A stretch of DNA of 19,823 nucleotides from IMG/VR virus record IMGVR_UViG_2585427795_000005. One strand, written 5' to 3'. This document shows positions 12,291-13,528 of this stretch, one piece after another. The stretch is from a virus (taxonomy: Duplodnaviria > Heunggongvirae > Uroviricota > Caudoviricetes). Numbering within the stretch: the stretch's first letter is position 1; every line of letters starts with the position of its first letter. A program made the position numbers and the translations under genes. The notes under the pieces were generated by a model that ran no database searches, had not been told where the DNA came from, and worked only from the letters and a program-made list of their open reading frames with translations.

Positions 12291-13528
12291 GCGAGTTGAG
12301 TTATCTGGAAAAATTGCTGGATGGGGTTGAGGTTGAGTGGGTACCTGTATCAGAACTATTTCAAATTAAAAATGGGTATACACCTTCAAAATCCAAGAAA
12401 GAATTTTGGGAGAATGGAACCATTCCATGGTTCAGACTAGAAGATGTCAGAGTCAATGGTAGGGAATTAAATGATTCTATCCAACACATAAATCCATTAG
12501 GAGTTAAAGGTTGTCTGTTCCCGAAAAACTCTATTTTCATGTCTACAACAGCTACCATTGGGGAGTATGCTTTAGTAAGGGTCCCTTATTTAACAAATCA
12601 ACAAATCACAAACTTTTCCATTTCTGAAAAATTCAGTGAAGCGGTCAATATAAAATATATTTTTTATAGGTTTTATGATTTCGGCAAGTGGTGTACGGAG
12701 AATGCTAATAAAAGTGGTGGAGTATCTATAATTGGACTCAAAAAACTGTCTCAATATCAGTTCCCAATCCCTTACCCGGATAATCCGGAAAAATCCCTTG
12801 CCATCCAGTCTGAAATCGTTCGGATTCTGGATAAATTTACTGCACTTACCGCTGAGCTTACCGCTGAGCTTACCGCTGAGCTTAACATGCGTAAAAAACA
12901 GTATAACTACTATCGCGACCAGTTGTTGAGTTTTAAAGAGGGCGAGGTTGAGTGGAAAACTTTGGGAGAAGTGGCTCAATACTCGAAAACAAGAATTAGT
13001 TTCGAACTACTTGATGAAAGGAATTATGTTGGCGTAGATAATCTGCTGCAAAACAGAGCAGGAAAATCATTATCTAATCATGTACCGACATCAGGTAAAT
13101 TAACGGAGTTTATACCTAACGATATACTGATTGGGAATATCCGCCCATATTTGAAAAAAATTTGGCAAGCAGATTGTATCGGTGGAACAAATGGCGATGT
13201 ATTGGTTATTCGTTGCATAGATAGCTCAATAAATACCAGATATCTATATCAGATTTTGGCAGATGACAAATTCTTTGAATACAACATGCAGCATGCTAAA
13301 GGAGCAAAAATGCCGCGTGGCAGTAAAGAGGATATAATGAAATACCCAATCCCTGTACCGCCACTCACCTTGCAAGCTCGCATTGTCGAAATACTCAACA
13401 AATTCGATACCCTGACAAACTCCATCACCGAAGGTCTTCCGCGTGAAATCGAGTTGCGCCAGAAACAATACGAATACTACCGTGATTTACTGTTCAGTTT
13501 CCCGAAGCCTGAAACTGTAAGTAATTAA
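12287..13528 (+). CDS. hsdS: Type I R-M specificity subunit HsdS (type IC), with three TAEL repeats in the central conserved region
   Basis: 413 aa; conserved N-terminal, central ([28 protein letters not shown]...[15 protein letters not shown]) and C-terminal ([35 protein letters not shown]) blocks flank two AT-rich target-recognition domains. Confidence 0.93.
12845..12884 (+). repeat. Three tandem copies of the 12-bp unit CTTACCGCTGAG plus a partial fourth, encoding (L)TAEL x3 in HsdS
   Basis: Perfect direct repeats at 12845..12856, 12857..12868 and 12869..12880. Confidence 0.95.

Follow-up and report, generated by a model that had tools for sequence, protein, structure and literature searches.

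A three-unit TAEL repeat array in the hsdS gene of an EcoR124-family type IC restriction-modification locus on a P1-like phage-plasmid

The specificity gene hsdS of an EcoR124-family restriction-modification (R-M) locus, carried by a P1-like phage-plasmid, contains three perfect copies of a 12-bp repeat that encodes the tetrapeptide TAEL. The repeat is very probably the length-setting module of the central conserved helix (CR1) of this type IC HsdS, a module whose length can be changed by crossing-over or slippage. The gene is a new allele of a well-known system with a well-known mechanism, and no new principle is involved. Below, the window denotes the whole 19,823-nt stretch of DNA that was analyzed.

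Results

The repeat array and its reading frame

Tandem Repeats Finder and direct reading of the sequence both give an array of period 12 with 3.3 copies and 100% matches (unit CTTACCGCTGAG), which lies in frame with the 413-aa hsdS open reading frame (Table 1). In the codon register, TAELx3 corresponds to nt 12848-12883 and to residues 188-199. The repeat finder and the translation thus agree on the three perfect TAEL copies that a preliminary description of this DNA had placed in hsdS; the partial fourth copy that it also listed is present, but amounts to CTTA only, i.e., the last Leu codon and the first base of an Asn codon. Upstream of the array, a degenerate unit, ACT GCA CTT (encoding TAL), extends the repeat homology, which begins at 12840. 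A 24-nt probe of two units matches the window at 12845 and 12857 only, and found no match in 200 dinucleotide-preserving shuffles. In addition, the window contains actgcacttaccgctgagctt...accgctgagcttaacatgcg, which is the EcoR124II repeat with its flanks as given by published mutagenesis primers (PMC10644984). Because the 12-nt unit is a multiple of three, gain or loss of a unit keeps the reading frame, and would alter the specificity of the enzyme rather than its expression, with no on/off switching of the gene.

A type IC locus flanked by P1 DNA

The hsdM, hsdS and hsdR genes follow one another in this order on the + strand. The stop codon of hsdM overlaps the start codon of hsdS (ATGA), and this coupling of hsdM with hsdS, with hsdR separate, is the type IC arrangement. 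HsdM scores 1150.7 bits against EcoR124 HsdM (7bst_D, residues 1-520; self-score 1167.3) and HsdR scores 2273.1 bits against EcoR124 HsdR (2w00_A, residues 1-1038; self-score 2309.5), ~98.5% of the self-scores in both cases. These similarities serve as a sequence proxy for the interchange of subunits; the family was originally defined by genetic complementation or by antibody cross-reaction between subunits. HsdS consists of an N-terminal conserved stub, the first target-recognition domain (TRD1), the CR1 helix with TAELx3, the second target-recognition domain (TRD2) and the C-terminal conserved helix (CR2). It aligns with EcoR124 HsdS (7bst_A) in four stretches. The conserved regions at the N terminus, in the center and at the C terminus are near-identical in the two proteins and are interrupted by a single gap of one TAEL unit (4 aa), because the PDB chain has two TAEL units. 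The preliminary description had assigned hsdS to the EcoR124 family and proposed a comparison with EcoR124 HsdS as a check; the HsdM and HsdR scores, the HsdS conserved regions with their single 4-aa gap, and the repeat DNA all agree with that assignment. By these comparisons, the locus is a genuine type IC (EcoR124-family) R-M system. A promoter scan of the cassette returned 11 sites against 12.6 expected by chance, and no promoter was assignable.

We note that chain 7bst_A is labeled 'EcoR124II specificity protein', yet has two TAEL units, a number that corresponds to EcoR124I, in agreement with the title of the entry. This naming inconsistency could mislead annotation.

The window is a segment of a P1-like (Punavirus) phage-plasmid, and Punavirus vB_EcoM-673R5 matches 91% of it. 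The hsd cassette (10728-16766) lies between phd/doc and pap/pmgS, where P1 itself carries other genes, and the same phd/doc-hsd-pap/pmgS arrangement is common to many E. coli plasmids and Punavirus records. Upstream of the cassette are open reading frames for transposases derived from insertion sequences, ref, cre, c1, pacA/pacB, lpa, pdcB/pdcA and doc/phd. The locus is flanked by P1 DNA on both sides, which fits the title of Tyndall et al. 1997 (cited in PMC12707154), according to which type IC hsd loci have such flanks. Transposase open reading frames are located at both ends of the window (79-354 and 19399-19776; PHROG 1191 and PHROG 720), so that the P1-like segment is bracketed by insertion-sequence remnants. 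A shufflon-type or inverting multi-hsdS locus was ruled out by tblastn and blastn, which found no second copy of hsdS in the window. P1 Cre, ~7 kb away from the hsd cassette and 9 kb away from hsdS, is the sole recombinase encoded there.

Table 1. Features of the hsd cassette and its flanks (positions in the window)
Feature	Position	Strand	Remarks
doc	9950-10330	-	P1 backbone directly upstream of cassette; annotation of homologous records
phd	10330-10551	-	P1 backbone directly upstream of cassette; annotation of homologous records and translation
hsdM, type IC methyltransferase subunit, 520 aa	10728-12290	+	ORF list, translation, EcoR124 HsdM match
hsdS, specificity subunit, 413 aa	12287-13528	+	ORF list, EcoR124 HsdS alignment, AlphaFold model
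TRD1, aa 17-165	12335-12781	+	Distantly related to EcoR124 TRD2
CR1, central conserved region, aa ~164-224	12776-12958	+	Near-identical to EcoR124 HsdS residues 112-212 save for a 4-aa gap
12-bp repeat array	12845-12884	+	3.3 perfect copies of CTTACCGCTGAG; degenerate homology from 12840
TRD2, aa 225-362	12959-13372	+	Second variable target-recognition domain
CR2, C-terminal conserved region, partner helix of CR1	13373-13528	+	Near-identical to EcoR124 HsdS residues 341-404
hsdR, type IC restriction/translocase subunit, 1038 aa	13650-16766	+	EcoR124 HsdR match
Terminator-like hairpin, predicted	16960-16982	+	Downstream of hsdR; 10-bp stem followed by a T run; consensus match only
P1-type polynucleotide kinase/3'-phosphatase (pap)	17031-17537	-	Downstream of cassette; PHROG match, annotation
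PmgS (pmgS)	17610-18725	-	Downstream of cassette; PHROG match, annotation

The paired helices and the spacer ruler

In the AlphaFold model of HsdS (pLDDT 69, a moderate value, the model being used for helix boundaries and fold class only), a continuous helix of residues 167-214 contains the repeat and is paired with a helix of residues 360-402. The closest fold match of the model is 7bst_A, EcoR124I HsdS. CR2 mirrors the TAEL array with three degenerate units of its own: CR1 (12827-12937) and CR2 (13373-13525) align without gaps, with 20 of 37 positions identical, and they do so only with three units in the array. Symmetry in length between the two helices is thus a property of the three-unit state.

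The TAEL-repeat spacer mechanism has been textbook material since 1989. EcoR124I, with two 12-bp repeats, recognizes GAA N6 RTCG, and EcoR124II, with three, GAA N7 RTCG; the change in repeat number arises through unequal crossing-over and is rare (PMC3874165). The rule given in the preliminary description, in which two repeats correspond to N6 and three to N7 and are exchanged via unequal crossing-over, is thus established (PMC3874165); an N7 spacer for the present allele would follow from the three-unit rule of the characterized enzymes, and is a prediction. In hybrids of EcoR124I and EcoDXXI, an altered repeat number shifted the spacer just as predicted (PMC3874165), which places the spacing effect in the conserved helix and not in the recognition domains. 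Removal of one unit from EcoR124II resulted in a different set of phages being restricted (PMC10644984).

In the mechanism that we propose, CR1 and CR2 would form an antiparallel spacer between TRD1 and TRD2 that keeps them apart. Four residues (TAEL) would be added to this spacer by each 12-bp unit and, as established for EcoR124I/II and the EcoDXXI hybrids, 1 bp to the non-specific gap, so that three units would represent the 'long' state, with CR1 and CR2 equal in length. The repeat would in this way set the distance between the methylated adenines, which is 8 in the characterized three-repeat enzymes, and an interval of 8 nt between methylated adenines is the prediction for the three-unit allele. 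Since the unit is a multiple of three and the copies are nucleotide-identical, rare unequal crossing-over or replication slippage could add or remove a unit in frame. We infer that the spacing effect would extend to the domain pair of the window and that its hsdS would itself switch. Switching may be very rare, as three 12-nt copies lend themselves poorly to slippage by the standard of true phase-variable tracts. Since the system is borne by a P1-like phage-plasmid, a gain or loss of a unit would affect the restriction targets of the lysogen as well as the marking of the element's own DNA.

Recognition domains

Both target-recognition domains differ from those of EcoR124, and the half-sites here are accordingly not GAA and RTCG. 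The portion of TRD1 encoded by 12374-12772 (aa 30-162) aligns best with the second recognition domain of EcoR124 HsdS, at the C-terminal side (residues 215-349), which fits a movement of recognition domains from one position to the other. This relationship of TRD1 to EcoR124 TRD2 is distant, that of TRD2 to solved S subunits is weak, and no specificity was assignable from either. The preliminary description held that recognition domains unrelated to those of the EcoR124 family would leave the repeat count without effect on spacing. The domains do differ, yet the spacer reading is unharmed, because the EcoR124I/EcoDXXI hybrids show a repeat effect independent of domain identity.

TRD1 and TRD2 are each 98-100% identical in many other alleles, where they are paired with different partners; TRD2, for example, recurs at 100% identity next to other TRD1s in many E. 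coli alleles. The exact HsdS protein of the window is absent from a collection of 15 billion proteins, and neither the 5,426 complete E. coli genomes nor PLSDB contain a record that reaches 80% coverage of hsdS. The pairing of the two domains is previously uncatalogued, and would therefore probably confer a new type IC specificity.

The nearest relative

Two copies of this domain pair are known, the window and the locus designated L002, and both have three units. The latter (L002 10001-11242; GCA_045610365.1, JBIHJD010000005.1) encodes WP_407221554.1 (P0001), and its hsdS differs from that of the window at 4 of 1242 nt (99.7% identical), whereas its hsdM and hsdR differ by ~3.7% (~96% identical). 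Its backbone is that of a different phage-plasmid, with tRNA-synthetase-like genes, ParA and Dam. This pattern suggests that hsdS was recently transferred or converted on its own.

Two of the four differences are adjacent and lie inside the array (AG to CA at 12855-12856), where they turn a duplication of the GAG unit into a duplication of the GCA unit. Read in the other register, L002 duplicates GCACTTACCGCT and the window duplicates GAGCTTACCGCT, and the same two-unit sequence underlies both. Different duplications of one two-unit sequence would mean that L002 and the window differ by a rearrangement within the array, although two point substitutions are a possible explanation as well.

Repeat number in natural alleles

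A 120-nt probe centered on the array matched 1121 records in a survey of complete E. coli genomes. Among these, 464 are at least 95% identical over a 120-nt span, which corresponds to three units, and 546 are 80-90% identical over a 108-nt span, which corresponds to two units. When 60 of the records were sampled at even spacing, ~25 three-unit, ~30 two-unit and 2 five-unit alleles were counted, and the three-repeat state accounts for ~41% of E. coli alleles in complete genomes. In IMG/VR, the matches listed comprise 47 two-unit and 34 three-unit arrays. None of the best 120 protein homologues has a perfect TAELx3, and 104 have TAELx2; the idea that the three-repeat state is rare was nevertheless rejected as a ranking artefact, given the ~41% found with the 120-nt probe and the 34 of 81 in IMG/VR. 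The three-repeat state singled out in the preliminary description is therefore correct as a count of units, but is nothing special, as ~40% of E. coli alleles share it.

Alleles that differ in repeat number were found with flanks that are 99.4-100% identical. One series, which has the TRD2 of the window, comprises pMUB-MIN9-2 with three units, P0056 with two and P0115 with one; another comprises the P1-like plasmid CP098997.1 (L001) with three and P0113 with two. Further pairs have three and two units (L015 and L052; L041 and P0096) or two and one (P0013 and P0016; P0067 and P0120). Searches of the 15-billion-protein collection, of PLSDB and of the 5,426 complete E. coli genomes yielded no two- or four-repeat form of the TRD1-TRD2 pair of the window. 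The suggestion of the preliminary description that this hsdS can probably flip is thus supported indirectly, by length variants of sister alleles and by none of the allele itself. Assembly or sequencing errors could account for some of the variants in the databases.

The units are homogenized within alleles. Across 96 arrays (the IMG/VR loci L004-L095 included), 21 synonymous unit sequences occur, and the mean difference between units is 0.09 inside an allele versus 2.16 between array types. Such within-allele homogenization reads as a signature of repeated unit gain and loss. Four three-unit alleles (P0027, P0029, P0063 and P0001) have one unit altered (TDEL, TAEF, TAEP and TAAL); these alterations could be sequencing errors, or mutations that lower the repeat homology and stabilize the count.

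Longer arrays occur as well. Five TAEL units were verified in the chromosome of E. coli NT1F10 (L096 3001-3144), where hsdM is annotated as truncated and adjoins an IS2; this five-unit array therefore sits in a decaying system. In data with one genome per species, ~25 hsdS genes from other phyla have 4 to 10 identical units. Long nucleotide-identical arrays (L118, L123, L107 and L125) are present in Suttonella ornithocola (9 units), Oxalobacter sp. (at least 10) and uncultured Clostridia (7 and 6), and these are candidates for genuinely fast length variation.

Discussion

One alternative is that the array is a fixed structural feature in a symmetric ground state, with a practically unchanging count in this element and with diversity generated by shuffling of recognition domains and not by repeat changes. 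The gapless CR1/CR2 alignment, obtained at three units only, agrees with such a picture, as do the three units in both known copies of the domain pair and the abundance of domain shuffling. However, sister alleles with identical domains exist in one-, two- and three-unit states, units are homogenized within alleles, and the window and L002 differ inside the array and hardly elsewhere in hsdS, all of which makes a fixed array unlikely. A miscounted array, the true allele having two units, is barely credible: short tandem repeats can be miscounted and the exact protein is absent from a large protein collection, but any read easily spans a 40-nt array, identical three-unit arrays are found in many independent complete genomes, and L002, the nearest allele, also has three units.

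At the other extreme, the array could be a high-frequency, programmed phase-variation tract of the phasevarion type that produces mixed methylation specificities in one population. Arrays of 5 to 10 identical units in other species would fit this explanation, and a published survey raises repeat-length variation near TAEL tracts as a possibility (PMC7383803). The present array has merely three 12-nt units, any change in which keeps the frame and hence provides no on/off switch, the window has no dedicated recombinase or second hsdS copy, and the published EcoR124 change is a rare unequal crossing-over (PMC3874165); a programmed tract is thus very improbable here. We favor a length-setting module of the CR1 helix, whose unit number changes rarely.

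A broader claim can be built on that module, namely that bacteria of many phyla and their mobile elements use the TAEL array time and again, under selection, to diversify, and that it is not an occasional accident. Its basis is the homogenization within alleles, the drift between them, repeat counts from 1 to 10 and the two different duplications by which the window and L002 apparently reached three units; we consider it unlikely. If it were true, a switch on a P1-like phage-plasmid would change the defense spectrum of the lysogen and the methylation imprint on progeny virions, and the array would be a bet-hedging host-range and defense dial for the phage-plasmid itself. For the length-setting module, the allelic series, the unit homogenization and the arrays of up to 10 units provide modest population-level support for repeat-count turnover in nature, which is useful for predicting type I specificities from sequence or for engineering spacer length.

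Comparison with known systems

Like the phase-variable hsdS genes with simple sequence repeats (SSRs; Atack et al. 2020), the hsdS of the window has a length-changeable repeat tract inside the gene. Those genes carry long tracts of short units that frameshift or truncate HsdS at high frequency, whereas the window has three 12-nt copies, every gain or loss of which stays in frame, and hence lies outside the phasevarion class.

Closer to the window are the HsdS of pMUB-MIN9-2 (WP_038997080.1) and that of CP098997.1, both type IC, both with a perfect TAELx3 and both from E. coli plasmids. CP098997.1 has a P1-like backbone, and pMUB-MIN9-2 (~103 kb) is known here from its hsd genes alone. The central region and TRD2 of pMUB-MIN9-2 are identical to those of the window, while TRD1 differs in both plasmids, as does the N-terminal stub in pMUB-MIN9-2. 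Two-repeat counterparts exist for both (P0056 and P0113), and a one-repeat counterpart (P0115) for one of them, whereas the window allele has none among the records searched.

EcoR124II (EcoR124/3, from plasmid R124/3) shares with the window the hsdM-hsdS-hsdR order, near-identical HsdM and HsdR, the same HsdS conserved regions, and three copies of a nucleotide-identical 12-bp TAEL unit. The two differ in both target-recognition domains and in their carriers, plasmid R124 for EcoR124II and a P1-like phage-plasmid for the window. The EcoprrI locus reportedly includes the anticodon nuclease gene prrC (title of Tyndall et al. 1994), whereas the gap between hsdS and hsdR in the window is 121 nt and holds no additional gene. 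Like the window, EcoDXXI and EcoprrI are natural three-repeat members with target-recognition domains other than those of EcoR124, and have N7 spacers (PMC3874165). With such natural enzymes in the family, the three-unit state is a normal functional state.
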